Shown: positions 8,786-26,588, counted from the first letter of the stretch. The stretch: 32,000 nt of DNA from Gemmata obscuriglobus (GCF_008065095.1 NZ_CP042911.1:1950001-1982000); one strand, 5' to 3'. Numbers and translations: made by a program. Notes: generated from the sequence alone by a model not told the origin.

Positions 8786-9412
8786 ATGTACACACCGCCG
8801 CACTTCGCCGAAGACGACCGAGACGCGCTTCACGACCTGATCGAGCGCTACAGTTTCGGGCTGCTCGTGTCGCGAGTTGCGGGCGAGCCGTTCGCCACCC
8901 ACCTGCCCTTTCTGCTCGACCGCACTGCGGGGCCGTACGGAACGCTCGTCGGACACGTGGCCCGAGCGAACCCGCACTGGCACGACCTGACCGCGGAACC
9001 GGTCCTGGTGGTGTTCAGCGGTCCGCACGCCTACATCTCGCCCGCGTGGTACGAGACCGAGTACGCCGTGCCGACGTGGAACTACGTCGCGGTCCACGCC
9101 ACCGGCCGCGCCGCGCTGGTCGAGGACCACACGGAACTGCTCGACATCGTGCGCCGGAGCGTGAGCTACTACGAAGCGGTGCGCCCGAACCCGTGGGCGC
9201 TGAACGAGTCCGGGCCGTTCGTGGAGCGGTTGCTCCCGCAAATCGTCGGCTTCCGGATCGAGATCGAGCGGCTCGAAGGGAAGAAGAAGTTGAGCCAGAA
9301 CCACCCGCGCGAGCGCCGCGAGAAGGTGATTCAGGCGCTGGAGTTGGACGGCAGCGCAGACGCGGTATCGGTCGCCGCGCTGATGCGCGACACGCTCTCG
9401 AAACCGGCCTGA
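8786..9412 (+). CDS. paiB: FMN-binding negative transcriptional regulator PaiB family protein
   Basis: The N-terminus MYTPPHFAEDDRDALHDLIERYSFGLLVS, the ...GHVARANPHW... segment and ...KLSQNHP... are hallmark PaiB motifs. The length is 208 aa. Confidence 0.85.
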   Translation: MYTPPHFAEDDRDALHDLIERYSFGLLVSRVAGEPFATHLPFLLDRTAGPYGTLVGHVARANPHWHDLTAEPVLVVFSGPHAYISPAWYETEYAVPTWNYVAVHATGRAALVEDHTELLDIVRRSVSYYEAVRPNPWALNESGPFVERLLPQIVGFRIEIERLEGKKKLSQNHPRERREKVIQALELDGSADAVSVAALMRDTLSKPA

Positions 9413-10374
9413 CACTCCAGAGCGGCGAACAGCCCGCTCACGCTCTCGATGCGCTTGACGCGGTCGAAGTGCGCGAAGCTCCCGAACTGCGACGCGAGCC
9501 GCAACCACTGCTTGAGCCGGCTCACGTTCTTGTCGGACCGGAGCATGTCGAAGCGGTGCGACCACTCGACCAGATTCCGCAGTTGCGCGGCCCAATCGAA
9601 CGGCTCGTCGGTCTCCTCAACGGGTGGCACCAGCCCGAGTTCGGCCGCAACACGGCGGGCGAGCCGCGGGTCGGCGAGCGCGCCGCGACCGAGCATGAAG
9701 TGTTTGCACCCGGTCACGTCGCGGCACCGTTTGAAATCCTCGACGGTCCAGATGTCGCCGTTCGCGACAACCGGGATGCCGAGCCGCTCGCGCACCCGCC
9801 CAATGGGCTCCCAGTGGATCGGCGGCGCGTACCCCGCGACCCGCGTTCGTCCGTGAATGGTGATCCACGCCGCCCCGCCCTCCGCGGCCATCGTGGCGTT
9901 CTCGTGGATGGCGTCGAGTGTGTCCCAGCCGAGCCGTAGCTTTGCCGAAACGGGAACGTGGGGCGGGAGCGCCGCGCGGATGGCCCCGACGATCTCACGA
10001 ATCCGCAAGGGGTGCCGCAGGAGGGCCGCGCCGCCGTCGTGCCGGTTCACGGTCGGGGCCGGGCACCCGAAGTTCACATCAACGGCGGTCGCCCCGAGTT
10101 CGTGAGCGCGGACCGCCGACTCTGCCATCCGCCCCGAATCCCCGCCGAGGAGTTGCACCTGAACCGGCAGCCCCGTGAGGGTGGCCGCACCGGTGCGGAG
10201 TTCGGGCACGTGGTCGTGGAACACGTGCCGCGGCGGAACCGCGTGGCTGACCCGCAGGAACTCGGTAACGGCGTAGGTGAACGCGCCGGTCGCCCCCTGA
10301 ACGGCCCGCATGGGCGCGTCAGTGACGCCTTCCATCGGCGCGAGCGCGAGCGCTGGTGTATCCGGGTGGAGCAT
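9331..10374 (-). CDS. tRNA-dihydrouridine synthase (Dus family, DusC-like)
   Basis: It contains LAPMEGVTDAPMR, VDVNFGCP (the catalytic Cys region), TIHGRTR and ANGDI motifs. The 3' end overlaps paiB convergently by 82 bp. Confidence 0.85.
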   Translation of the reverse strand: MLHPDTPALALAPMEGVTDAPMRAVQGATGAFTYAVTEFLRVSHAVPPRHVFHDHVPELRTGAATLTGLPVQVQLLGGDSGRMAESAVRAHELGATAVDVNFGCPAPTVNRHDGGAALLRHPLRIREIVGAIRAALPPHVPVSAKLRLGWDTLDAIHENATMAAEGGAAWITIHGRTRVAGYAPPIHWEPIGRVRERLGIPVVANGDIWTVEDFKRCRDVTGCKHFMLGRGALADPRLARRVAAELGLVPPVEETDEPFDWAAQLRNLVEWSHRFDMLRSDKNVSRLKQWLRLASQFGSFAHFDRVKRIESVSGLFAALECQAGFESVSRISAATDTASALPSNSSA

Positions 10375-10577
10375 GGGTGTAGTGTACCGCGCCCCGCGCC
10401 CTGCGAAGTGATTGCCCGGTCGGGCCGTGCGCCAGAAACCGGCCCCGCACCCTGGTCTCTTGGTGTTATGTTTTTAGAATTCGTAACACAGATGGGCGGG
10501 TAGACCTCACCTCTGATTAGCTTCCGTCCCCGACTCCAGCGGTTGCCGTCCCGGCGCACGGCCTGAGGACGAACACG

Positions 10578-10679
10578 ATGGGCTATTACCGCCCGGTGCC
10601 GCGGCGGCCGTTCAACCCCGTTCTCGCGCTCGTGGCCGCTGCCGTGCTGGTGGTAGTGGTCTTGCTCTCGCGCCCGTGA
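10578..10679 (+). CDS. possible 33-aa single-pass membrane peptide
   Basis: The translation is MGYYRPVPRRPFNPVLALVAAAVLVVVVLLSRP, preceded by a GAGGA motif. It is too short to be confident. Confidence 0.2.
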   Translation: MGYYRPVPRRPFNPVLALVAAAVLVVVVLLSRP

Positions 10680-10796
10680 CGGGTGATGTTCCGCGAACGG
10701 TTACAAGTGCGCGATTTGGTCTTTTGTGCTTGTGACATAGAAATTCCAGTCTGCGCCACAAGAAACAGACACAGTCTATCGATTATGTTGTTGAAA

Positions 10797-11040
10797 CTAC
10801 TCCTCGGACGCCGCGGCTCCAGTTACGCCGAGCTGGTAGGCGGATACGCGGCGCTCGAAGAAGTTGGTCAGCTCCTGCACGTCTTGCAGGTCCATGAAGC
10901 CGAACGGATTCTTGGTCCCGAACACGGGGGCGATGCCGAGCGACTCCAACCGCCGGTCCGCTGCGTACTCCGGGTAGCTGCGGAGGTCCCTACACGACAA
11001 CCCGGCCACGCCCAACCGCCACTCGCGGCGGCGAGCCGCG
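10797..11040 (-). pseudogene. nrdB: 5'-truncated duplicate of the nrdB 3' end (last ~75-80 codons)
   Basis: GVAGLSCRDLRSYPEYAADRRLESLGIAPVFGTKNPFGFMDLQDVQELTNFFERRVSAYQLGVTGA aligns with the C-terminus of the intact nrdB (16285-16530). By eye I count about 11 mismatches over about 168 nt in the core, including a 58-nt identical block. There is no upstream nrdB sequence and no start. Confidence 0.85.
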
Positions 11041-11136
11041 CGGACCAGCTACGGGCACCATGTGGAGCCCGACACACGGGCTTCACCACTGCGGACCACA
11101 CGCCCACCGCCGCCCGCGCTGCAGAACGCGAGGGCG

Positions 11137-11215
11137 GCCGAACAATGAACTCACCTGCACCGCCATCATCGGATGAGCGGTGCGTTCCAAGTCAGCCGGC
11201 GGCGCCCGGTTCGGC
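11137..11215 (-). repeat. attC-like repeat R1 (distal end of array; inner right arm partly deleted)
   Basis: It reads GCCGAAC-aatgaac-tcacctgcaccgcc...ggatgagcggtg...gccggcggcg-cccg-GTTCGGC. The stop of cassette A lies inside it. Confidence 0.65.
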
Positions 11216-11611
11216 GCCTGGGGCCACGCCGTCAGGCCGCGCCCGCCGACGCAACGGTCCCCGCCCCTTGAGACCGGCGACCGGTGCTCGCTCCGCCGGT
11301 TCGTCTACCTCGCCGGGCGGGAGCACCCGGAGGGACAGCACGTCGCCCGCCCGCAACTCCCCGCCGAGCCATTCCAACGTCTCGGACCGAGTCGTGTCAA
11401 GCGCCCCCAGTCCGTACTCGAACTCGCCCCCGGCCCACGACTCGGGAGTGAACCCCGGAGTGGCCAGCATCTCAGGAGTCAGCCGCGCCGGGTCGCGGCG
11501 CGCCCACGACAAGAAGAAATCCATCAGCCCGAGGTCGCTAACGGCCGCAGTCGTTACCACCCGCCCGTTCACCGACACCTCCAGCCGGTTGTTCTGCCCG
11601 CTCGACGACAT
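11192..11611 (-). CDS. cassette A hypothetical protein (139 aa)
   Basis: The ATG at 11611 follows a GGAGG with a 9-nt spacer and lies 32 nt from repeat R2. The product begins MSSSGQNNRLEVSVNGRVV.... The longer tracked ORF (to 11989) runs through R2 and cassette B. Confidence 0.55.
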   Translation of the reverse strand: MSSSGQNNRLEVSVNGRVVTTAAVSDLGLMDFFLSWARRDPARLTPEMLATPGFTPESWAGGEFEYGLGALDTTRSETLEWLGGELRAGDVLSLRVLPPGEVDEPAERAPVAGLKGRGPLRRRARPDGVAPGAEPGAAG

Positions 11612-11643
11612 CCGCTGCGGCCTCCATAACTCTCGAGTTCCTT

Positions 11644-11736
11644 GCCGGCCATAAAGCTCACCAGCCGCGCCACCCGCGTTCGGTGCTGGAAACAACCTCT
11701 GCGCCGCGGTCCGGTGCGGCGTCGGGTTGGGCCGGC
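11644..11736 (-). repeat. attC-like repeat R2 (degenerate)
   Basis: gccggccataaagctcaccagccgcgcc...ggtccggtgcggcgtcgggttgggccggc aligns with both arms of the consensus. The cores have mutated to GCCGGCC/GGCCGGC. Confidence 0.5.
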
Positions 11737-12263
11737 TACCTCTCGCTCTGGAGGGCGTAGTCCAGCCCCAGCCCCCGAAGCGCGGCTTCGTCGAGGGGTT
11801 GCTTGTCTGCCGCATCCAGGAGGCTCGGCCGCCACGACCCGCCCCCGAATACCCACGACCCGCCCCGGACGCGGGCGGCCGCACCCTCGTACCAGGCGAC
11901 CCGCCACCGGCCGGTGGCCCCGCCGAGCAGCACCCCGACCCGCACGGCGCTCGCCCAGCGCACCGACCCCCCGTGCGGGCCGGCTTCACCGCCCCAACGA
12001 TAGCTGGCGGTACACCTGTCGGGGTGCATCGTGAACGGGAACACCTTGGCGAGCGACCAGGGCATCAGCACCGGGCCGCCGGGCCGGTCGGCGACCAGGC
12101 ACACGAACGCCGTGTCGGCCGGTACGTCCCGCACCTCGACGGCAACCTCGTCGTAGGGGTATAAGTACAGACGGACGAAGTACCCGAGGGCCAAGACGGC
12201 AGTAACGCCGATGGCGCGACCGGCCTTCAACCGCCACCTCGAGCGCTCCCGCTTTGCGTCCAC
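11736..12263 (-). CDS. cassette B N-terminally membrane-anchored hypothetical protein (~175 aa)
   Basis: The GTG at 12263 lies 5-6 nt after a GAGGG. The N-terminus is basic, followed by the hydrophobic helix AIGVTAVLALGYFVRLYLY. The TAG stop abuts R2. Confidence 0.55.
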   Translation of the reverse strand: MDAKRERSRWRLKAGRAIGVTAVLALGYFVRLYLYPYDEVAVEVRDVPADTAFVCLVADRPGGPVLMPWSLAKVFPFTMHPDRCTASYRWGGEAGPHGGSVRWASAVRVGVLLGGATGRWRVAWYEGAAARVRGGSWVFGGGSWRPSLLDAADKQPLDEAALRGLGLDYALQSER

Positions 12264-12278
12264 AGGCGCCCTCGGGTG

Positions 12279-12368
12279 GCCGAAAACCAAGCTCACCAGC
12301 ACCGCCCCCTACAAGCGAGCGATGCGCCCCGATCCGCGGGCGGTGTCGGGTGCCGCGCCGGGTTCGGC
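12279..12368 (-). repeat. attC-like repeat R3
   Basis: It reads GCCGAAA-accaagc-tcaccagcaccgcc...gcgggcggtgtcgggtg-ccgcgccgg-GTTCGGC. Confidence 0.65.
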
Positions 12369-12377
12369 CTACTCGCG

Positions 12378-12812
12378 CTAAGTGTAACCGAACGGCCTGA
12401 GCATCTCCAGGAACGCATCCGACTTCTGCGGCGGACAGGCCAGAACCGCGGCGACGAACTCTTCGGGCGGCTGGTACTGATGGTCCTCGACGTAATGGAC
12501 GATCAACTCCGGCGCGACGTACACCACCGACATGGACGGGATCCAGAAGTTCCGCGCGCCGCCGGCGCGGTCGGCCCCCGGAGCGGGGTGCGAGCAAAGC
12601 TCACAGAAGTGCGGCCCCATCGCCAGTACCGGCTGCCAGGAGTCGTAGGCGTGCGCGCGAAGGGCGGCCGAGAAGCCCGGTGGCACGGGGCCGGTGGGGA
12701 ACGAGTGGTCCGGGTGAAGCCACCCGACCGCGCGAACGTGGTCGCCTCGATCCACTTGGCACGTCGTCCCGAGATCTGGGAAGAACATGGCGACAACCTC
12801 GCAGTTCGGCAC
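12378..12812 (-). CDS. cassette C hypothetical protein (144 aa) with an HFCELC motif
   Basis: The composition looks coding (…VYVAPELIVHYVEDHQYQPPEEFVAAVLACP…). The stop lies 9 nt from R3. The start is the ATG at 12812 or the Met 8 codons further in. Confidence 0.6.
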   Translation of the reverse strand: MPNCEVVAMFFPDLGTTCQVDRGDHVRAVGWLHPDHSFPTGPVPPGFSAALRAHAYDSWQPVLAMGPHFCELCSHPAPGADRAGGARNFWIPSMSVVYVAPELIVHYVEDHQYQPPEEFVAAVLACPPQKSDAFLEMLRPFGYT

Positions 12813-12831
12813 GGCAAGTGGCCTTCTGGTG

Positions 12832-12927
12832 GCCGAACGATGAACAAACCTGCCGGCGGGGCTGAGTGAGCTGTGAACCTGGAAAAGCTTACATGCCCCG
12901 CCGGTCTGGGGCGGCGCTTGGGGCGGC
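12832..12927 (-). repeat. attC-like repeat R3b (divergent)
   Basis: It starts with the conserved GCCGAAC-gatgaac. It has its own inner stem (cctgccggcgggg / ccccgccggtctgg). The right core has degenerated (cttggggcggc). Confidence 0.45.
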
Positions 12928-12936
12928 GTCTGCGGC

Positions 12937-13242
12937 TCACCCCGCCGGCCGTCGGCAGTGCGGGCAGCACAGGTCGGTGAAGTCGTCAGGGCTGATGCCG
13001 CCGCCCTCGTTCCCGGACTCCGGGATGACGACCACCACCGGCCCGTGAGCCGGGCAGGTGAGGGCGGCGAACGCCCCGCCCGGCTCGGCTTCCACCCCGG
13101 ACCACCCGCACCACGGGCACTCGGTCACTGGTGGCCCGCCCGCGGTGGCGACGAGTTGGAGCCAGTTGCACTCCGGGCACCGGAGCCGCGACACCGGGTG
13201 GGCGGTCACGGGTTGGTGCCGCCAACCAGACGCTTCCGCCAT
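12937..13242 (-). CDS. cassette D Cys-rich zinc-ribbon-like protein (101 aa)
   Basis: It has CPECNW, CPWCGW, CPAHG and CCPHCRR pairs. The ATG at 13242 is preceded by GTTCGGC-GGAGGG-cgcacgg, that is, the repeat core, then the Shine-Dalgarno motif, then the start. Confidence 0.6.
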   Translation of the reverse strand: MAEASGWRHQPVTAHPVSRLRCPECNWLQLVATAGGPPVTECPWCGWSGVEAEPGGAFAALTCPAHGPVVVVIPESGNEGGGISPDDFTDLCCPHCRRPAG

Positions 13243-13255
13243 CCGTGCGCCCTCC

Positions 13256-13346
13256 GCCGAACGATGAACTCACCTGCGCCGCCACCACCGGATGAGCGGT
13301 GCGTCCCGAATCCGCGGGCGGTTTCAGGTGCCGCGCCGAGTTCGGC
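13256..13346 (-). repeat. attC-like repeat R4
   Basis: It reads GCCGAAC-gatgaac-tcacctgcgccgcc-accaccggatgagcggtgcgt...gcgggcggtttcaggtg-ccgcgccga-GTTCGGC. Confidence 0.7.
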
Positions 13347-13485
13347 TCGTCTTTGAGCGGTTCTCACGCTGCATCAGGCGAGTAAGTGGTGCGATGGTCG
13401 GCAAGGACATCTGCCCTCGTGATGCCACCGAACACACGGGCGAACTCGCTAATCAAATCCCTTACAGAGACTAACTCCCCCTCGA

Positions 13486-13911
13486 TCAGGAATTTGAGGT
13501 CCGGCGGTGTGACCCAATCCCCGCAATCGAATTTTCAGCGTGAACTGGAACGGACTTGCCGCGAAGTTCCTGCTTGGCAAACGGCATCCGGAGGAAGCCT
13601 AACCGGTGTTTGAGTCCGTGCAGCTCCTGTACAACTCGCTGAGAAAAACACTGCTTTGCTTGGCACATGGTCCGGACGATTTCGTAGGCTCCGATTACCC
13701 ATAACCAGATTCGGCCGTAGCAGCAACTGATATCGATGCTCAGCACCGCCCCTTTCCCTGTCTCAACGTTCGGCGAAATGCCAGTGTCGAGCCGCGCAAG
13801 AATTTCCACACCCAGCTCTCGAATTATTCGACTTTGGCTATCGACATATATAGAGAAAATGACGAGTGGATTATTGTTGAGCATATCCTCAGCGATTGAG
13901 GTTGCTTCCAT
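13486..13911 (-). CDS. cassette E hypothetical protein; low-GC, probably frameshifted (reading continues to 13364 in another frame)
   Basis: A GAGGA motif precedes the ATG at 13911. This region is markedly lower in GC than its neighbours. A second frame, open from 13534 to 13367, encodes DWVTPPDLKFLIEGELVSVRDLISEFARVFGGITRADVLADHRTTYSPDAA and stops 18 nt from R4. Confidence 0.5.
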   Translation of the reverse strand: MEATSIAEDMLNNNPLVIFSIYVDSQSRIIRELGVEILARLDTGISPNVETGKGAVLSIDISCCYGRIWLWVIGAYEIVRTMCQAKQCFSQRVVQELHGLKHRLGFLRMPFAKQELRGKSVPVHAENSIAGIGSHRRTSNS

Positions 13912-13989
13912 TTCAGAGTCCTCGCAGTTGACTTGGTTGCCTTAAACTAAATGGAGCCTCCCAAACAAAGCAAGGTTCGCCTTTCTCTT

Positions 13990-14080
13990 GCCGAACAATG
14001 AACTCACCGGCACTGCCATCATCCGATAAGCGGTGCGTCCCAACTCAGCCGGCGGTGTCAGGCGCAGCGCCGGGTTCGGC
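13990..14080 (-). repeat. attC-like repeat R5
   Basis: It reads GCCGAAC-aatgaac-tcaccggcactgcc...gccggcggtgtcaggcg-cagcgccgg-GTTCGGC. Confidence 0.7.
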
Positions 14081-14134
14081 CATGCCCCCACATGTCGGTG
14101 ACATCACTCAGATGTCCCGCTACCTGGTTCGGGG

Positions 14135-14524
14135 TCACCCGCGTCCCTGCCGCAGACGCTCCAACTCCTCTCGCAACCGCCGGTTCTCCGCCTCCAGTGA
14201 AGTCATGGTGTCGGTGGCGGGTGCGGGCCGCTCTGCGTACCTCACGATCCGGTCCTCGGTGAAGTACACTCCGGTCCACATACTCGTCTTGCAGTGGGCC
14301 TCGTGCTCATTGCCGTCGCGGTCGAGGTAACGGACGCCGTAGATGCGGTCGCTCTTCTCGCCGAACCAGCCGGGGCCAAAAGGTGACCAACTCGAGTCCA
14401 GCACCTTGCCGCCCCGCTCTTCGACGTACTGCCTGATCCGGTCGTGGTCCATCCCCCCGGCCGCGAGCCGGATCATGATGCCGACCACGATCACGACAGG
14501 GATGAGTAGGAAGAAACCTTCCAC
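14135..14524 (-). CDS. cassette F small membrane-anchored protein with C-terminal coiled coil (129 aa)
   Basis: The GTG at 14524 lies 7 nt after AGGGGG, just past R6. It has a transmembrane helix (FFLLIPVVIVVGIMI), then DHDRIRQYVEERGGKV...CKTSMWTGVYFTED, then LEAENRRLREELERL. The longer tracked ORF runs through R6. Confidence 0.55.
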   Translation of the reverse strand: MEGFFLLIPVVIVVGIMIRLAAGGMDHDRIRQYVEERGGKVLDSSWSPFGPGWFGEKSDRIYGVRYLDRDGNEHEAHCKTSMWTGVYFTEDRIVRYAERPAPATDTMTSLEAENRRLREELERLRQGRG

Positions 14525-14541
14525 CGCTGCGCCCCCTAGTG

Positions 14542-14633
14542 GCTGAACATCAAACCCGCCGACACCGCCACCGCTCGGATGAGCGGTGTGTCCCAAGTCT
14601 GCCGGCGGTGTCAGGTGCCGCGACGGGTTCGGC
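14542..14633 (-). repeat. attC-like repeat R6
   Basis: It reads GCTGAAC-atcaaac-ccgccgacaccgcc...ggatgagcggtg...gccggcggtgtcaggtg-ccgcgacgg-GTTCGGC. Confidence 0.65.
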
Positions 14634-14645
14634 CGCCGGAGGATG

Positions 14646-15029
14646 CTACCCTCTTCGCTTGGCGACGGGACAGCCAAGCAGCGACGGCAACTCCCGCTCC
14701 AACGCGCTCACCAACGGCGACGCCTCTGCCGCCCAGAAGACTGACACGTCGGTAGTCGCGCCCGCCAGCGCTCCGGTGAGGAACGCCCACTCGCCGGCGT
14801 CCCTGATCTCGTGGACCTGAGTGACGTTAACACCGACCACAGTGCCGCGGGCCTCGCCCCACGACCACTCGCCGCACCAGTTCCGCTCACCGTCGTACTC
14901 GAACGCGGGCAGGCCAAGCGCCTCGCCCCGCCAGCCCGCGAGCAACTCACAGACCCGATCGAGGTCACACCCAGCCACGGCGAAGTGACGGGCGGATGTG
15001 TACCGGGGATCGCTCCCAATCGCTACCAC
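14646..15029 (-). CDS. cassette G hypothetical cytoplasmic protein (127 aa)
   Basis: The GTG at 15029 lies 9 nt after GGGGGAGGG, directly following the R7 core. The TAG stop lies 12 nt from R6. The tracked N-terminus (MTAVLVSSSFGGGG) is a translated repeat. Confidence 0.5.
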   Translation of the reverse strand: MVAIGSDPRYTSARHFAVAGCDLDRVCELLAGWRGEALGLPAFEYDGERNWCGEWSWGEARGTVVGVNVTQVHEIRDAGEWAFLTGALAGATTDVSVFWAAEASPLVSALERELPSLLGCPVAKRRG

Positions 15030-15047
15030 GCCGCGAAGCCCTCCCCC

Positions 15048-15138
15048 GCCGAACGATGAACTCACCAACACCGCCGTCACCGGATGAGAGAAGCGTCCCG
15101 AATCAGCCGGCGGTGTCAGGTGCCGCGCCGGGTTCGGC
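15048..15138 (-). repeat. attC-like repeat R7
   Basis: It reads GCCGAAC-gatgaac-tcaccaacaccgcc...gccggcggtgtcaggtg-ccgcgccgg-GTTCGGC. Confidence 0.7.
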
Positions 15139-15236
15139 TCTCCACGTTACCCCTTGCCCAGCACCAGGTCCACCACCCGGCACCCGCGGACGTGAGGCGC
15201 CGGGCCGCGGCAGTGTTTCTAGGAGGGGTGAACGGG

Positions 15237-15743
15237 CTACTTGGCCGGCGGGGTGTAGGGCTCGACCAGAGGGTAGGTACGCTTGTCGATCGTGACCGTG
15301 TCCCAGACGCGCAGCCACGGCGCGTCCGGCGTCACCCCGCCTCCGACCTTCAGCCCGGCGGTCGGATGGCGCAGCACGAACGTGCCGTAGCACAGGACCA
15401 GGCCCCCGCCCTGGACGGGCACCCAGTGGGACGGAGCGTGGACCAGCGCCCGCTCGGCGTCCAGGATCTGCACCACCCCGAACTCCCGCAGCGGGGTCGG
15501 CGCCTCCCCCTTGGCCTTCTCGTACCCGAGCGGGCCGGCGGTCCCCACCTTCATCTTCTCGGCGAACACGAACGGCACGGCCGTCACGTCCTCCAACCGC
15601 TTCAGCTCGGCCTCCTTGGCGGCGAGCTGCGCCCGCAGGTCGGCCACTTCCTTATGCAACTGCGCGGCCTTCTCCCTGCGGTCGGCACCGCCGGCCGTGG
15701 TGGCGAAACACACCAGCGACAGGGCACAGATCATTCGGAACAT
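15237..15743 (-). CDS. cassette H (promoter-proximal) secreted coiled-coil protein (168 aa)
   Basis: A strong AAGGAGG lies 5 nt before the ATG at 15743. The N-terminus MFRMICALSLVCFATTAGGA looks like a signal peptide, followed by a heptad-like segment (AQLHKEVADLRAQLAAKEAELKRLE). Confidence 0.7.
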   Translation of the reverse strand: MFRMICALSLVCFATTAGGADRREKAAQLHKEVADLRAQLAAKEAELKRLEDVTAVPFVFAEKMKVGTAGPLGYEKAKGEAPTPLREFGVVQILDAERALVHAPSHWVPVQGGGLVLCYGTFVLRHPTAGLKVGGGVTPDAPWLRVWDTVTIDKRTYPLVEPYTPPAK

Positions 15744-15764
15744 GTGAGCCTCCTTACAGTTGGT

Positions 15765-15776
15765 TGCGAACGATGA
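15765..15776 (-). repeat. isolated half-site TGCGAAC-GATGA at the first-cassette junction (attI/cassette-junction-like)
   Basis: It matches only the core and the first spacer bases of the repeat family. No palindromic partner follows. It lies 21 nt upstream of the cassette H start. Confidence 0.4.
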
Positions 15777-15858
15777 GCCCGTCGGACGGCTGGCCCGGCG
15801 GGTCTAAAACTCTACGCCAGGTCTCGCTTGGCGACAATTGCGAAGTGCCGCACGCCCG

Positions 15859-15897
15859 CCACAGAAGGCCGCGGCCATCGCCCTCGGCCTTCTGTGG
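15859..15897. other. hairpin with a perfect 13-bp stem, abutting a GCCGAACCAG core copy
   Basis: ccacagaaggccg (15859-15871) pairs with cggccttctgtgg (15885-15897). A GCCGAAC core begins at 15897. Confidence 0.6.
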
Positions 15898-15937
15898 CCG
15901 AACCAGTGTTTAGTGCTCGAAGCACCGTGCCCGCATT

Positions 15938-15979
15938 CTCAAGACTGGTAAGAGTCTGTAAGTTCTTACCAGTCTTGAG
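15938..15979. other. perfect 16-bp inverted repeat with a 10-nt loop
   Basis: ctcaagactggtaaga (15938-15953) pairs with tcttaccagtcttgag (15964-15979). Neither strand has a flanking U-tract, so it is not a classical terminator. Confidence 0.6.
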
Positions 15980-16124
15980 CACGAACCGCAAGAGGCTACC
16001 GGGGCAACAGCGCGTCGCGTGAAGGCTGTGTGAAGATTCCTTGCGTGCGGCCGCCGAACCAGCCTCCAGCGCGCCACACCCACTCCGCGCGATCGATCGT
16101 CAGTGCCGGTGCACCGTGCGACAG

Positions 16125-16185
16125 TAAATAATACAAGCGGAAGTGATGTCAATAGTGGCAATTGTCGCAGTCATTTATTATAGCA
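16125..16185 (-). promoter_or_regulatory. AT-rich island with sigma70-like promoter motifs pointing into the cassette array
   Basis: The minus strand carries TGCTATAAT, an extended -10 (16185-16177), and TTGACA-N16-TATTTA (16152-16125). It is the only AT-rich patch between the nrdB stop and cassette H. The Planctomycete promoter consensus is poorly known. Confidence 0.35.
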
Positions 16186-16284
16186 CGGCGGAACGAGATA
16201 CACATCGGGCAGAATCACCGGGGGTCGAGGGCCGTGGCGGCCAGACGGACCTCATCCATGCGTATCACACGCGCCGCCTTAATA

Positions 16285-17283
16285 TCAGAACTCTTCCTCG
16301 AACGCCACGGCGCCGGTTACGCCGAGCTGGTAGGCGGACACCCGGCGTTCGAAGAAGTTGGTCAGCTCCTGCACGTCTTGCAGGTCCATGAAGCCGAACG
16401 GATTCTTAGCCCCGAACACCGGGGCGATGCCGAGCGACTCCAGCCGCCGGTCCGCCACGTACTCCAGGTAGCTGCGCAGGTCCGCCAGCGACAAGCCCGC
16501 GACCCCCTGGCCCAGCACGTCGCGGGCGAATGCGGTCTCACACTCGACCGCCTCGCGCAGCATCGCCACGATCTGCGCTTCCAGTTCCGCGTCGAACAGG
16601 TCCGGCTCCTCGCGCCGCACCGTGTCGATCACCCGGAACGCGAACGCCATGTGCGCGCTCTCGTCCCGGAACACCCAGTTGGTGCCGGTCGCCAGCCCGT
16701 GCAACAGCCCCTTCGAGCGCAGGAAGTACACGTAAGCGAACGCCGCGAAGAAGAACAGCCCCTCGATGCACGCCGCGAAGCACACCAGGTTCAGCAGGAA
16801 CGCGCGGCGGTGCGCCCGGGTTTCCAGCCGGTCCAGCCCCTCGATGGAGTCGATCCACTTGAAGCAGAAATCGGCCTTCAGCTTGATGGACGGGATGTTG
16901 TCCACCGCGGCGAACGCGGCCTCGCGTGCGGCCATGTCCGGCAGGTAGTTGTCGAGCAGCGTGAGGTAAAACTGGACGTGCAGCGCCTCCTCGTAAAGCT
17001 GTCGCGACAGGTACATCCGCGCCTCCGGCGCGTTCACGTGCTTGTACAGGTTCAGCACCAGGTTGTTGCCGACGATCGAATCCCCGGTGGCGAAGAACGC
17101 GACCAGCCGGTGAATCAGGTGCCGCTCGGCGGGCGTCACCCGCCCCCGCAGGTCCGCGAGGTCGGTGGAGAAGTCCACCTCGTCCACGGTCCAGGTGTTC
17201 TTGATCGCGTCCTTGTACATCTCGAAGAACGGCGGGTAGCGCATCGGGCGCAGGGTCAGACTCATTCCGGGATCGAGGAGCAT
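16285..17283 (-). CDS. nrdB: class I ribonucleoside-diphosphate reductase beta subunit (R2)
   Basis: It has the ferritin-like di-iron motifs FFATGDSIV and EEALHVQFY, the latter being ExxH with Tyr at H+4 (the radical position). It also has the EGLFFFAAFA and DESAHMAF segments. A GGAGG lies 7 nt before the ATG at 17283. Confidence 0.9.
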   Translation of the reverse strand: MLLDPGMSLTLRPMRYPPFFEMYKDAIKNTWTVDEVDFSTDLADLRGRVTPAERHLIHRLVAFFATGDSIVGNNLVLNLYKHVNAPEARMYLSRQLYEEALHVQFYLTLLDNYLPDMAAREAAFAAVDNIPSIKLKADFCFKWIDSIEGLDRLETRAHRRAFLLNLVCFAACIEGLFFFAAFAYVYFLRSKGLLHGLATGTNWVFRDESAHMAFAFRVIDTVRREEPDLFDAELEAQIVAMLREAVECETAFARDVLGQGVAGLSLADLRSYLEYVADRRLESLGIAPVFGAKNPFGFMDLQDVQELTNFFERRVSAYQLGVTGAVAFEEEF

Positions 17284-17330
17284 AAAACGGCCTCCGTGCC
17301 GTCGGTGAACCGGGGATTCGCGCCCCGGGT

Positions 17331-17553
17331 GTGGTTGCGTTGACCGAGACTGTCGAACGATGGGCGGATGGATGTGGCTGCGTTTTGGTCCGTGCCGCCC
17401 TCGCGCTTACGAAGACAATTTTTGACAGGATCAACAGGATAGACAGGATGAAGGCAGACAAATTTTAAATCCTGCTGATCCTGTTAATCCTGTCAACAAC
17501 TCTTTAGTTTTCATCAAGCCTTGACGCCGAACACCCTTATCTCGGGCTGGCTG
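17331..17553 (+). repeat. ~223-bp repeat, tandem copy 1 (palindrome arms 17422-17449 / 17469-17496)
   Basis: It aligns along its whole length with 17554-17780. The palindrome core is TTGACAGGATcaACAGGATagACAGGAT ... ATCCTGctgATCCTGTtaATCCTGTCAA. Confidence 0.8.
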
Positions 17554-17810
17554 TGGTTGCGTTAACCGAGACTCTCGAACAGGGGCGGAATGGGCGGATG
17601 GTCGTGGCTGCGTTTTGGTCCGTGCCGCCCTCGTGCTTACGAAGGCAGTTTTTGACAGGATCAACAGGATAAACAGGATGAAGGCAGATGAATTCTAAAT
17701 CCTGTTTATCCTGTTGATCCTGTCAAAATATTCTTGGCTCCTTCAACGAGTTTTGGTGCCACGCCCTCATCTCGGGCCGCCGCGCCAACACGAGCGGGGC
17801 TCATTCCGCC
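17554..17810 (+). repeat. ~223-bp repeat, tandem copy 2 (perfect 28-bp arms 17652-17679 / 17699-17726) plus the shared right flank
   Basis: TTGACAGGATCAACAGGATAAACAGGAT is exactly reverse-complementary to ATCCTGTTTATCCTGTTGATCCTGTCAA. The right flank agcggggctcattccgcc is shared with copy 0 at 7868-7888. Confidence 0.8.
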
Positions 17811-20294: not shown

Positions 20295-20394
20295 ACAGGC
20301 GGATGGGTACGTGCGCGAGCGCACGTGTGCCGGCCGCCCGCCGCCTTCCCCTCGAAGGCACGGGTGTGTCCGCGCGGCGCAGGGTGTGCGCGGC

Positions 20395-20590
20395 GCGGGT
20401 CGGCGGCAGGTCTTCGGACTTCGGGCGGGTGCGGCGAACCGCACACCTACTGGCCGTCGCTTCCCGGCCCACCTGGGCCAGTGCGTGTGACGGCGGTCGT
20501 TCCCGTTACCGCTGCGTGGGGCAGTCCCGGATTTCCACCGGGTTCCCTTTTAGTCAGCCGCGCGAGGCGCGGCCGAACCGACGACAATCA
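20395..20590 (-). promoter_or_regulatory. cobalamin (AdoCbl/B12) riboswitch in the nrdA leader
   Basis: The minus strand reads AAAAGGGAACCCGGUGGAAAUCCGGGACUGCCCCACGCAGCGGUAACGGGAA...CACUGGCCCAGGUGGGCCGGGAAG...GAAGUCCGAAGACCUGCCGCC. This covers the conserved core (AGGGAA-CCGGUG-AAAUCCGG-ACUG-CCC...GUAA), the CACUGG...GGGAAG pairing elements and a B12 box (AGUCCGAAGACCUGCC). Confidence 0.8.
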
Positions 20591-21092
20591 CCATCATCGG
20601 CGTTCCGCGCTGCCGGCCGCAACCAAATCCGCGCGCCGGGGCAAACGGGGCGCCGCGGGTACGGGGCAGGCAAGCCATGCGCGTTACGCGGGTTGGAACC
20701 GGTTGCGGCGCTGTAACGGGGGTTACAGCGCCACGTCAGCGACCCGACTGGACATCCGCTACCCATTCGCTGGTCGTTCGGTGGCAGTTCGCTGGGGCAC
20801 AGCTACCACCGAATCCCACACCCCCAAGCACAGGAGCGGGGCACCGAGACGACAGAGTTCGAACGCGGTAATTGGGACTCAATGCGTTCAATTCAAACGA
20901 GTTGCGGCGAATTTTATGTGCAGGCGAGTTCGCTTTTCGGGCACGAATGCGGTGCCGACCGCTTGCCCGGAACCGGTCGCGGGGAGTGGAAAACTTCTGG
21001 AAGCTCTAAATGGGGGAAATGCGGTGGGGAAATGCCCGATGTGCCGAACGCGCGACCCGCGGCAACGCAGCGAACGGCACCGGTACAGCGGG

Positions 21093-23663: not shown

Positions 23664-26588
23664 TCAGCCGACGAAGACGCCGAGGTTCAGCGGGTCGCTG
23701 AGCGCCACCTCGGACAGTAGCGCGAGCGTCACCCCGTTGAAGGTGCGGAGCCGCCCGGAGCCGCCCGGGCCGGCGCCCACGAGCAGGTCGGCGGCCCCGT
23801 CCCCGTTGACGTCCCGCGCGCCCACCCGGGCCGCACCGGCGAACCCCGGGAACGCCAGGAACGACCGGATCTCGGCCCCGGTCGCCCCGCTGAACACCCG
23901 CACGTGTCCGTTGGCGTCCGCCCCCACAACGAGGTCGTCGGTCCCGTCCTTATCGACGTCGCCGGACGCCACGTTCACGCCCCCGGTGAACCCGGGGAAC
24001 GCCAGGAACGACCGGATCTCGGCCCCGGTCGCCCCGCTGAACACCTTCACGTGCCCGTTCGCACCGGCCCCGGTGATGATGTCGTCGAACCCGTCGTTGT
24101 TGATGTCGCCGGAGGACACCCGCACTTCGCCCGGGAAGCCCGGGTACGCGAGGAACGAGCGCACCTCGGCCCCGGTCTTGCCGTCGAACACCTTCACGTG
24201 CCCGTTGATGGTCGCCCCCACAATGACATCATCGAACCCGTCGTTGTTGATGTCGCCGGCCGCGACGTACACGCCGCCGGTGAAGCCCGCGAACGGGAAG
24301 AACGAGCGCACCTCGGCCCCGGTGCTACCGTCGAGCACCTTCACGTGCCCGTTCACGCCCGCCCCGACGACGACGTCGTTCACCCCGTCGCCGTTCACGT
24401 CACCGGACGCGGTGGTCACCCGGCCCTGGAACCCGGCGAACGGGGTGACGGTCGTGGAGGTGCCGTCCGCCCGGGTGATGACGACCACCGGCCCGGCCGC
24501 CACCGAGCCGGCGCCCGCGGTGTCGTTATCATTGACGCTCAACGTGGCGGTCGTCAGCGCCCCCAGCACGGCCCCGCCGGTCGGGGCGGAGAGCGCAAGG
24601 GTGACGGTCTCCAACCCTTCCGCAAGCGTGTCGTCGGTGAACGGGATGGTCAGCGTGGCGGCCGTCGCACCGTCCGGGAAGGTGACCGTGTACGGCCCGC
24701 TGGCGAAGTCCGTGCCCGCGGTCGCGGTGCCGCCCGTCACGGTTACGGTCACGGTCACCTCGCCGCTAGAACCGCCGGAGCGGAACAGGGTGACAACGGC
24801 CGCTCCGCCCTCGGTGGCGCTGAAGGTCGTGAGCCCGAACGAGATGGTGCCGGCCGGGGCGGCCGCCAGCGTCAGCCCGGCCAGGGCGGTCGCACCCGCC
24901 CCGACGCTGCCCAGGCTGGTGGCCTCGCCCGTCACCAGGTTGATGGCGTAGAGCCGCGTGACCCCGTTCACGGTCAGCGCGGCGTAGCCGGTGCCCGAAG
25001 TGACGGCTGTGTTGGACGTGCCCACGCGAACGCCGGCCGGGATGTCGAACCCGTTCACGTCGGTGAAGTCGATGGGCGCGCCGCCGACCGTGATCGGGAT
25101 CCGTGCCGTCTGGGTGCCGTTGTTGGGCGGGTTCTGGATGAACAGGCTGTCGCTGGCGGCGTCGAGCGTGTACTGGGTCGTAACCCCGCCGCTGAGGGGC
25201 TGGCCGAACGAGTTGGTGTACGCCGTCGCCGAGACACCGGTCGAGCCGGCCGGCAGGCCGATAATGGCACCGTCAACCGTGGCCGCCGCCGGCGCGCCGG
25301 TGTTCGGGTTCACGCGGAAGTTGAGCCCGGAGCCGGTCGTCACCCGGAGCCGGTCCACGGTCGGGTTGAAGTCGAGCCCGTAGCCCGCCGTCGCCGGCGG
25401 CAAGTCGACGCCGGAGAAGGTGATCGAGCTCGGAGTGCCCACCGCCGTCAGTGCGCCGGTCTGCGGGTCGATCAGGTAGAGGGTGGCGGTGTCGGCCGTG
25501 GCGTTGACACCTAGCCCGTACAACTGCCCGGTGGCGGGCCGGAAATCGATCCCTACCAGCACCTCGTTCGCGGCCAGCGAGCCGGTGCTGATGGCCTGTG
25601 TGGTGACGGTACCGGGCGACGCTGTGTTGAACCGCAGCAGTGAGGCTCCGTCGTCGCTCAGGGCGATTGCGGGAAACCCGCCCTGGTCGCTCTGGATCGC
25701 CAGCCCTTGAACGGCGGTCGCGCCGGTGCCCACGTTGCCGATCAGCGTGGCTTGGCCGTTGACCAAGTCGATGCTGTACAGGCCGGTCGTGCTGCCGTCG
25801 TTTAGAACCGCGAAGGCAGACCCTGCGGTGACAGCCGCGTTACTCGACGGGGCGTTTACGCCGGCCGGGATGTCGAACCCGTTGACCGCGGTGAAGTCGA
25901 GCGTCGACCCGCCCAGGGTGATCGTCTGGACGCTCACCTGGGTGCCGGCGTTAGGCGGGTTCTGGATGAACAGGCTGTTGCTGGTCGCGTCCAGCGTGTA
26001 CAGGGTAGTGATGCTGCCGTTATTGGGCTGGTTGTTGGTGTACCCGGCGGCATCCACGCTGGTGGTGCCGGTATTGACGGGGCCGTCGGGGTTAATACCG
26101 TTGCCGGCGTTGTTGTCGGTATCTACGCCGGCGCCGGTGTTCGGGTCGGCCCGGAAGTTGAGCGACCCGGCCACCACGCGGACGCGGTCCGCCGCCGGGT
26201 TGAAGTCGAACCCGTAGCCAACTGTGGCCGGGTCCGGCAGGTCGACGACGGTCGTGCCGTCGGTGGTGAACGCGATGCTGCCGGCGGTGCCGACGGCAGT
26301 GGCGACCCCGGTGCGGGTGGAAATGGCGTACAGGGTTGCGGTGTCGGCGGCGGCGTTAACTCCGAGCCCGTAGAGCAGGCCGTTCTGCGGGCGGAAGTCG
26401 ATCCCCACCAGCGTCTCGCTCCCGGTGACCCCTGTGATGGCGGTCGTTTGCGTGACCGTCGGGGCGGCGGTGTCGAAGGAGAGCAGGCTGGTCCCGCTCA
26501 GCGCGAACGCAGTCGCAGGTGTTGTGCGGTCCTCGAGGGATTCACAGTTCAGCCGAACCACATTCGGTGTACGGAGAGTGTGACGCAT
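23664..26588 (-). CDS. large surface protein: LEDRxTPA N-terminal motif, 2x DUF4394, Calx-beta, FG-GAP/VCBS beta-propeller repeats (974 aa)
   Basis: DUF4394 signatures occur twice (SLLSFDTA...ITGV..GETLVGIDFRP..G.LYGLGVN...LY.I...TG.AT.VG). The Calx-beta signature is EVTVTVTVTGGTATAGTDF...TLTIPFTDDTLAEGLETVTLAL. The C-terminus has repeated GD[VI]N[NG]DG.DD..VGA FG-GAP units. Confidence 0.85.
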   Translation of the reverse strand: MRHTLRTPNVVRLNCESLEDRTTPATAFALSGTSLLSFDTAAPTVTQTTAITGVTGSETLVGIDFRPQNGLLYGLGVNAAADTATLYAISTRTGVATAVGTAGSIAFTTDGTTVVDLPDPATVGYGFDFNPAADRVRVVAGSLNFRADPNTGAGVDTDNNAGNGINPDGPVNTGTTSVDAAGYTNNQPNNGSITTLYTLDATSNSLFIQNPPNAGTQVSVQTITLGGSTLDFTAVNGFDIPAGVNAPSSNAAVTAGSAFAVLNDGSTTGLYSIDLVNGQATLIGNVGTGATAVQGLAIQSDQGGFPAIALSDDGASLLRFNTASPGTVTTQAISTGSLAANEVLVGIDFRPATGQLYGLGVNATADTATLYLIDPQTGALTAVGTPSSITFSGVDLPPATAGYGLDFNPTVDRLRVTTGSGLNFRVNPNTGAPAAATVDGAIIGLPAGSTGVSATAYTNSFGQPLSGGVTTQYTLDAASDSLFIQNPPNNGTQTARIPITVGGAPIDFTDVNGFDIPAGVRVGTSNTAVTSGTGYAALTVNGVTRLYAINLVTGEATSLGSVGAGATALAGLTLAAAPAGTISFGLTTFSATEGGAAVVTLFRSGGSSGEVTVTVTVTGGTATAGTDFASGPYTVTFPDGATAATLTIPFTDDTLAEGLETVTLALSAPTGGAVLGALTTATLSVNDNDTAGAGSVAAGPVVVITRADGTSTTVTPFAGFQGRVTTASGDVNGDGVNDVVVGAGVNGHVKVLDGSTGAEVRSFFPFAGFTGGVYVAAGDINNDGFDDVIVGATINGHVKVFDGKTGAEVRSFLAYPGFPGEVRVSSGDINNDGFDDIITGAGANGHVKVFSGATGAEIRSFLAFPGFTGGVNVASGDVDKDGTDDLVVGADANGHVRVFSGATGAEIRSFLAFPGFAGAARVGARDVNGDGAADLLVGAGPGGSGRLRTFNGVTLALLSEVALSDPLNLGVFVG

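Follow-up and report, generated by a model that had tools for sequence, protein, structure and literature searches.

A probable integron cassette array without an adjacent integrase between nrdB and dus of Gemmata obscuriglobus

The stretch analysed here, 32,000 nucleotides of one strand of the Gemmata obscuriglobus chromosome (GCF_008065095.1, NZ_CP042911.1:1950001-1982000; hereafter the window, with positions counted from its first letter), carries between nrdB and dus eight copies of an imperfect palindrome, spaced 424-734 bp apart, with exactly one minus-strand open reading frame (ORF) in each interval between them. With considerable confidence, we assign this region to the CALIN type (cluster of attC sites lacking integron integrase) of chromosomal integron cassette arrays, built here on an attC subtype specific to Gemmata. 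The direct basis for this view is the structure and strand asymmetry of the repeats, their occurrence in arrays only, the adjacency of integron integrase genes (intI) to them in relatives, the turnover of cassettes, and a sharp boundary at a core sequence. A CALIN comprises at least two attCs clustered within 4 kb with no intI nearby, and the eight sites of the window, at the spacing given above, are such a cluster. The original prediction, made from the window's sequence alone, had proposed an integron-type cassette array with intervals of about 420-735 bp and one ORF apiece; the measured intervals agree with it, and the array reading is supported by structure, array-only distribution, the link to intI and cassette variation.

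To locate the repeats, a covariance model (CM R1) was built from 11 copies, five from the window and six from G. algarum, and run over all 32 kb with filters off. It recovered exactly eight sites, all on the + strand and precisely those listed in the original prediction, of which six scored 74-108 bits and two were degenerate, the latter being the copies already singled out as such at 11644 and 12832. In ascending order they are r1 (11137..11224, 74.1 bits, E 5e-16), which is the attC of cassette c1 and has an internal deletion on the L'' side; the degenerate r2 (11644..11736, 36.9 bits, E 8e-7); r3 (12279..12368, 83.6 bits), for which a fold was computed; r4 (12832..12927, 19.2 bits, E 0.017), a divergent subtype with its own long stem and a degenerate R'' side, whose counterpart in G. 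algarum JC717 scored 32.6 bits; r5 (13256..13346, 107.9 bits); r6 (13990..14080, 104.2 bits); r7 (14542..14633, 93.7 bits); and r8 (15048..15138, 105.1 bits). Elsewhere in the 32 kb the model gave nothing under E 0.05 besides 10-18-bit opposite-strand echoes at the same sites. Searches with half-repeat patterns gave five matches each, against 0.00 and 0.01 expected from shuffles. The lone half-site that had been noted near 15765 also exists (15765..15776, + strand, GCGAAC-GATGAG, GCGAACGATGAG); it lies between the attI-like core described below and cassette c8, is too short for scoring with the covariance model, and is probably the R' end of a decayed attC. Readings of the series as CRISPR-like (clustered regularly interspaced short palindromic repeats) or as plain tandem repeats were dropped, given intervals of 420-735 bp with an ORF in each.

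On the + strand, the repeat unit reads GCCGAAC, 8 unpaired nt, CACC, 1 nt, an 8-bp stem and a variable apex with a small conserved hairpin, after which the return arm runs through the stem return, 2 nt, GGTG, 9 unpaired nt and GTTCGGC. In folds of the window copies, the outer 7 bp pair, the spacer stays unpaired and the inner stem has a bulge. The perfect 7-bp outer cores and the unpaired spacer next to them that the original prediction described are seen in both alignments and folds, and its constant bulge of 3 versus 2 nt is better read as 1 versus 2 nt, with spacers of 8 versus 9 nt. Structure statistics were computed on 150 family members aligned to the covariance model. Standard pairs occupied 91% of pair cells, compared with 29-40% when partners were slid by 1-3 columns. 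In 13 of the 24 pairs both partners had changed; shuffles averaged 6.7, and none of 500 reached the observed value. The outer R box shows no covariation, its sequence itself being conserved as GCCGAAC/GTTCGGC with essentially invariant AAC/GTT triplets; its pairs are 98% paired (149 distinct copies), and each core agrees, as predicted, with 6/7 positions of RYYYAAC/GTTRRRY. Helices 2 and 3 are 97% paired, with both-side changes in 8 of their 12 pairs, and the apex helix is variable and 64% paired. Total length ranges from 74 to 113 nt (mode 91), within the attC range of about 57-141 nt.

The two arms are unequal. The 3' arm is longer by 2 nt in 118 of the 150 copies and by 1 nt in 14 more, the surplus being a single base in the spacer and another in the bulge of the L box; the original prediction had likewise seen a bulge always on the same arm. 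Furthermore, one stem position is a G.T pair on the + strand in 141 of 149 copies. Nivina et al. (2016) reported that the recombinogenic bottom strand has 5'-AAC in R' and extrahelical bases on the opposite arm, and that G:T pairs are enriched on the attC bottom strand (PMC5027507). By this rule, the arm asymmetry makes the + strand of the window the bottom strand, and cassettes are therefore expected on the minus strand; all eight ORFs lie there. The repeat has paired cores, a spaced L box, strand asymmetry and a variable terminal structure, the features by which attC sites are recognised.

We then considered where the family occurs in other genomes, using a 30-nt degenerate repeat pattern in a scan of 185,579 species genomes; G. 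obscuriglobus itself was not among the genomes returned. Many loci were found in Gemmata algarum, Gemmata sp. SMAG_U3706, Gemmata sp. IIL30, one Gemmataceae isolate and metagenome-assembled genomes of Planctomycetota, and other phyla gave single chance-like matches. In related loci of Gemmata and Planctomycetota (designated L with a number), about 290 kb in all, the family occurs only in tandem arrays and on one strand per locus, with 186 copies by a profile hidden Markov model and 236 by the covariance model (45 loci). Each interval of these arrays holds one co-oriented small ORF. The nrdB loci of Gemmata SH-PL17 and IIL30 (42 kb) gave no match with the covariance model, and 370 kb of unrelated intI loci, searched as a specificity control, gave one borderline match only.

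The arrays of relatives are linked to integron integrases. A tblastn search with IntI1 found full-length homologues adjoining the repeats in L060, L029 and L006 and a further homologue in L009, and these integrases pass NCBIfam TIGR02249 with 348-449 bits (cut-off 265). A fifth integrase, the IntI of G. algarum JC717 (P0073), is encoded on L104, a contig that ends 565 nt past its stop; after intI, an attI-like motif is seen at the contig end, with no attC. All five relatives have intI ahead of the cassettes and on the cassette strand, an 'inverted' layout, and not divergent as in the classical picture. An IntI-based metagenome scan returned only integrases of other lineages, 49-65% identical and without the Gemmata attC type. 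As a separate observation, L009, which is binned as an uncultured Alcaligenaceae, combines a partial integron integrase with Gemmata-type attCs (101 bits); it is either a mis-binned planctomycete contig or a case of inter-phylum transfer.

Comparison of the same locus in sister species provided evidence of cassette turnover. G. obscuriglobus has the order nrdA-nrdB-array-dus. Both G. algarum strains, JC673 and JC717, also show nrdA-nrdB-array, which in JC717 is followed by dus and by distal flanks that are identical; the JC673 contig ends within the array. In Gemmata SH-PL17 and IIL30 other genes follow nrdB, there is no attC and the site is empty. Homology between G. obscuriglobus and G. algarum is confined to three stretches, namely nrdB with 388 bp downstream, a block comprising cassettes c4 and c3 (the latter encoding a DUF7919 protein) with 93-95% nucleotide identity, and the dus side. 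The remaining cassettes differ between the species, and JC673 and JC717 also differ from each other. Because the differing cassettes occupy an orthologous nrdB-dus interval, cassette content has turned over at a fixed chromosomal site; comparison of the locus among relatives had been proposed with the original prediction, and gene content is indeed not identical across G. obscuriglobus and the two G. algarum strains. In addition, G. obscuriglobus and JC673 have the same sequence over a 315-bp tract (window 16225-16539; L098 10745-11059) that takes in the terminal ~255 bp of nrdB together with the next 60 bp, the rest of nrdB being ~3% different and JC717 5.5% different in the tract. To judge from these sequences, this suggests that homologous DNA was recently exchanged between the species here.

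The head of the array is marked by a conserved leader with an attI-like simple site (15897..16036, minus strand), which was recognised from alignments and where homology between loci ends at the core. On the minus strand, it comprises two TTCAC(A/G)C repeats, a 16-bp hairpin (arms 15938-15953 and 15964-15979) and then ACTAAAC-ACTG-GTTCGGC, that is, two inverted core-like 7-mers (ACTAAAC at 15908-15914 and GTTCGGC at 15897-15903) 4 bp apart. The hairpin stays paired through three double changes in the alignment of nrdB-type with guaA-type leaders, and its fold z-score is -3.3. Homology between the species past nrdB stops exactly at window position 15897 (L098 11387), the last base of the minus-strand GTTCGGC. 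A leader of about 135-140 nt aligns at four loci, namely the nrdB loci of G. obscuriglobus, JC717 and JC673 and a second JC673 array by guaA/proC (L074), and the sequences diverge immediately past the GTTCGGC core. Its last ~20 nt recur at two further JC673 array heads, after intI in L029 and where the JC717 intI contig stops, with ...CGCACACTAAACACTG; a repeated core there would break an assembly. Given its position at the conserved-to-variable boundary and its conservation, we infer from sequence that 15897-15914 is an attI-like site. The original prediction had missed the core at 15897-15903 and had placed nrdB where both intI and attI should sit. The slot of intI is indeed held by nrdB, but a candidate attI site is present at the array head.

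Other features of such heads were also recorded. The attI-like array heads of JC673 lie at L074 2920-3066, L059 ~364 and L020 ~7106, with no intI within these 8-kb loci, and the L074 head is downstream of guaA and proC and co-oriented with them. In the window, a 17-bp inverted repeat at 15858-15898 (GCCACAGAAGGCCGCGG / CCTCGGCCTTCTGTGGC) abuts the attI-like core, in the remnant before the first ORF. A search of metagenome contigs with the exact 40-nt leader hairpin gave no match.

Several observations weigh against the assignment to a CALIN-type array or qualify it. No intI or intI remnant was found in the six frames of the window with a Gemmataceae IntI profile (best E 1.3), in keeping with the original view that no integrase was to be seen there, and tblastn with IntI1 likewise gave nothing. 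The region is free of intI for 11 kb on one side and 16 kb on the other, and the window therefore holds no complete integron in the sense of an array with an adjacent intI carrying the IntI-specific domain. Two IntI queries (Gemmataceae and G. algarum) against a collection of 5.8 billion proteins yielded no G. obscuriglobus IntI among the best 120 relatives per query, reaching down to 64-65% identity, a search that a divergent copy or pseudogene would escape. An intact close IntI is thus probably absent from G. obscuriglobus, as far as these protein searches indicate, and the array may be a frozen relic in this strain. Nevertheless, the missing intI does not weaken the identification, because the CALIN definition covers such arrays (PMC4889954); Cury et al. 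(2016) found about half of CALINs in genomes without intI and 95% of them far from any intI pseudogene (PMC4889954). A further difficulty is that the homology blocks shared between arrays have no clean end at the R' core. The c4-c3 block begins ~10 nt ahead of the preceding attC and ends in the r3 apex, and similarity among attCs blurs this test. Among the homology breakpoints, 5' ends are concentrated at -90 and between -20 and 0, and 3' ends between -10 and -5; as the ends are blurred in the same manner, this pattern is given no weight for or against the array reading.

The sites themselves also depart from expectation, with cores that match RYYYAAC/GTTRRRY at only 6/7 positions and a spacer of 8/9 nt, above the textbook ~5 nt; these departures from a textbook attC are modest. 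The published Planctomycetes attC consensus differs as well (GCCUAAC-AAuGC-GUUGCAGC). The class described by Ghaly et al. (2021) shares with the Gemmata family the phylum, the plan of R box, spacer, bulged L box and variable loop, and the invariant AAC at positions 5-7 (PMC8352920). Its consensus is GCCUAAC-AAuGC-GUU(G)CAGC with a 5-nt spacer, whereas the Gemmata family on the same strand reads GCCGAAC-CCGGCGCGG-CACCTG with a spacer of 8/9 nt. Judged on these consensus sequences, the Gemmata repeat is an attC subtype distinct from the published Planctomycetes class. The covariance model of Ghaly et al. (2021) was built on 188 chromosomal attCs, and chromosomal Planctomycetes attCs have thus already been modelled (PMC8352920).

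Alternative origins for the region were weighed on the same evidence. The repeats could be generic extragenic palindromes, comparable to repetitive extragenic palindromic sequences and bacterial interspersed mosaic elements (REP/BIME) or to miniature inverted-repeat transposable elements (MITE), or serial transcription terminators, in either case unrelated to integron recombination. They are indeed intergenic imperfect palindromes of ~91 nt with perfect 7-bp terminal inverted repeats in a GC-rich genome, and single-sequence fold z-scores are modest (-0.3 to -2.7). Yet the 236 matches in relatives and the eight in the window all lie in single-strand tandem arrays and are never scattered, contrary to what the original prediction had named as the mark of a REP/BIME element; there are no copies in the other 27 kb of the window or in the non-array flanks; integron integrases adjoin the repeats in five relatives (at L104 by the attI-like motif only); the arm asymmetry is constant; and the scan for T-run terminators found none. 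We regard this origin as highly improbable.

Of a different kind are two accounts that concern how the array came to stand without intI. According to one, it is a detached part of a still-active integron, with an IntI encoded elsewhere on the 9-Mb chromosome exchanging cassettes at the attI-like site in trans. Such service seems normal in Gemmata, as G. algarum has one intI contig (L104) and at least four attI-like array heads (the nrdB locus, L074, L059 and L020). The variation of cassette content between species and strains is in line with it, as is the finding that half of CALINs lie in IntI-encoding genomes (PMC4889954). The protein searches above, which recovered no G. obscuriglobus IntI within their stated reach, count against it, and we take this account to be possible but doubtful. 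According to the other, which we consider rather unlikely, the nrdB 3' end, the leader and the array came in together as a single 5.3-kb block that joined nrdB at its 3' end and may have duplicated this end in doing so, either by a Campbell-type single crossover of a circle with an nrdB 3' segment or through a site-specific island integrase, which would account for an array without intI. Direct copies of the last 219 bp of nrdB (88% identity) bracket the block, the distal copy abuts a truncated cassette, the identical 315-bp nrdB 3' tract is flanked by nrdB sequence that differs by ~3% between G. obscuriglobus and JC673, and the site is empty in Gemmata SH-PL17 and IIL30. However, there is no recombinase gene or remnant in or beside the block, and JC717 is without the nrdB' copy. 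Moreover, block arrival explains how the platform came to the site and not the later cassette differences, and so complements the CALIN-type array as the favoured explanation.

The arrangement of the array and its flanks was examined along the minus strand, where a cobalamin riboswitch (20388-20597; Rfam, 95.9 bits) lies upstream of the nrdAB operon and is followed by nrdA, nrdB (16285..17283), ~380 bp of non-coding sequence, the series of repeats and ORFs, the nrdB' fragment and dus (tRNA-dihydrouridine synthase gene, 9331-10374) on the far side. nrdB thus precedes the array in the same orientation and takes the slot that intI has in relatives. An Rfam scan at gathering and E-value thresholds gave the cobalamin riboswitch alone, plus sub-threshold hairpin noise, and Rfam has no attC family. 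Scans for sigma-70 promoters and intrinsic terminators over 10500-17800 gave nothing useful, and no terminator was predicted from nrdB to the array. Read-through would therefore put the cassettes under B12-dependent control.

The eight cassette proteins are mutually unrelated (blastp), in agreement with the original prediction. From the attI-like site outwards, all on the minus strand, the cassette ORFs are c8 (15237..15743, 168 aa), which is closest to that site and has no family match, with a G+C content at third codon positions (GC3) of 0.93; c7 (14646..15029, 127 aa counted from the GTG after GGGGGAGGG); c6 (14135..14524, 129 aa); c5 (13486..13911, 141 aa); c4 (12937..13242, 101 aa), common to both G. 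algarum arrays with 94% identity by tblastn; c3 (12378..12812, 144 aa), also common to both and matching DUF7919 (Pfam PF25535, E 4.5e-32); c2 (11736..12230, 164 aa as called in the public record); and c1 (11192..11611, 139 aa), whose stop lies inside attC r1. Seven of the eight have a genome-typical GC3 of 0.82-0.93, and the single low-GC cassette that had been predicted is c5 (GC 0.52, GC3 0.57), which indicates a foreign origin. Searches of Pfam, NCBIfam and PADLOC families with the eight proteins gave the DUF7919 match of c3 as the sole result, and it is usual for cassettes that nearly all their proteins are unannotatable. The prediction that ORFs start close after the upstream core holds for five cassettes (13-32 nt), but c2 starts 48 nt and c5 78 nt after it, and c8 starts 153 nt past the attI-like core. 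Stops were likewise expected inside or within about 100 nt of the next repeat; they lie inside or near it, but the distance reaches 139 nt.

Beyond attC r1 lie 123 nt of a truncated ninth cassette (c0', 11014..11136, minus strand), with 73-83% identity by blastn to cassette starts. It corresponds to the first ~123 nt of a cassette family with many copies in other Gemmata arrays (L039, L070, L052, L048 and L050), and since 11014-11136 matches only the first part of that family, the ninth cassette is cut off where c0' meets the nrdB' fragment. The family itself (~450 bp) is multi-copy across L039, L070, L052, L048, L050, L061 and L076, from G. algarum and Gemmata sp. SMAG_U3706, and L039 contains four tandem copies. 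The nrdB' fragment (10797..11013, minus strand) is a decayed 219-bp, 72-codon copy of the nrdB 3' end, in direct repeat with nrdB at 88% identity. Compared with functional nrdB genes, it has 88-89% identity to those of G. obscuriglobus and G. algarum and 80% to that of SH-PL17, and the fragment is specific to G. obscuriglobus. By rough arithmetic, its divergence is about that of neutral decay since the species split.

Two further observations were made elsewhere in the window. The nrdA-nrdB intergenic region (17360-17730) contains two 137-nt direct repeats that are 91% identical, each with a perfect or near-perfect 30-nt inverted repeat of ACAGGAT heptamers (TTTTGACAGGATCAACAGGATAAACAGGAT); Rfam gives sub-threshold microRNA-like hairpin matches only, and G. 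algarum has an nrdA-nrdB spacer that is shorter by ~220 bp. At 23664-26588 and 26820-29024 (both minus strand), adjacent genes encode large paralogous proteins with DUF4394, Calx-beta and FG-GAP repeats.

Along the minus strand, the layout consists of nrdAB, a leader of ~140 nt whose end reads ACTAAAC-ACTG-G|TTCGGC, a short remnant that has decayed, eight promoterless cassettes that each terminate in an attC of ~91 nt, and, at the distal end, the truncated ninth cassette and the decayed nrdB 3' copy. By analogy with the integron paradigm, the + strand of each attC would fold into the recombinogenic bottom-strand hairpin, and an integron integrase acting in trans would excise cassettes through recombination between two attCs, with the crossover at AA|C in the R box. 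Excised cassettes might then be re-inserted at the attI-like core, and transcription of the cassettes would, on the same analogy, come by read-through from nrdAB or from the leader.

In comparison with known systems, the array shares with CALINs (PMC4889954) at least two tandem attCs <4 kb apart, promoterless single-ORF cassettes of mostly unknown function, the lack of an intI or intI pseudogene within 10 kb, and a host genome that may be without intI. It differs from them in retaining an attI-like simple site with a conserved leader at its head, and in occupying one chromosomal site in two species whose cassettes differ. The Gemmata attCs are also very homogeneous, whereas CALIN attCs were reported to be the least similar to each other (PMC4889954). 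With the 'inverted integrase' group of sedentary chromosomal integrons (PMC3575428), it has in common taxon-homogeneous attCs and long arrays, and the five relatives share the position of intI upstream of the cassettes on the same strand; unlike in that group, the intI slot of the window is held by nrdB and no integrase is linked to the array. Insertion at genomic attG secondary sites (cited in PMC12614218) also places cassettes outside a complete integron beside a housekeeping gene. Unlike a bare GTT secondary site, the array head has two conserved boxes and is found again at several arrays and by intI.

The array exemplifies a known kind of element and gives no pointer to a new mechanism. 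Beyond the routine are the structured attI-like leader at several integrase-less arrays, the docking of arrays co-oriented downstream of housekeeping operons, and turnover at a fixed site. One speculative extension, which we put forward tentatively and would sooner doubt than assert, is that Gemmata genomes have several integrase-less satellite platforms, each with an attI-like two-box site, a structured leader and an array downstream of and co-oriented with a housekeeping operon (nrdAB; guaA-proC at L074). Their cassettes would be driven by host transcription, with nrdAB under the cobalamin riboswitch, and a single IntI would feed all of them in trans; the G. obscuriglobus platform would then persist, perhaps turning over, without a resident IntI.

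For the family, the Gemmata attC subtype, with its long unpaired spacer and with same-strand intI in relatives, means that general attC models may under-detect such arrays. The G. obscuriglobus locus adds a well-resolved integrase-less cassette array outside Proteobacteria, and it is unusual in combining one site comparable across sister species, cassette turnover and a recognisable attI-like head. In this way it bears on the question of whether CALINs are dead relics or platforms served in trans.

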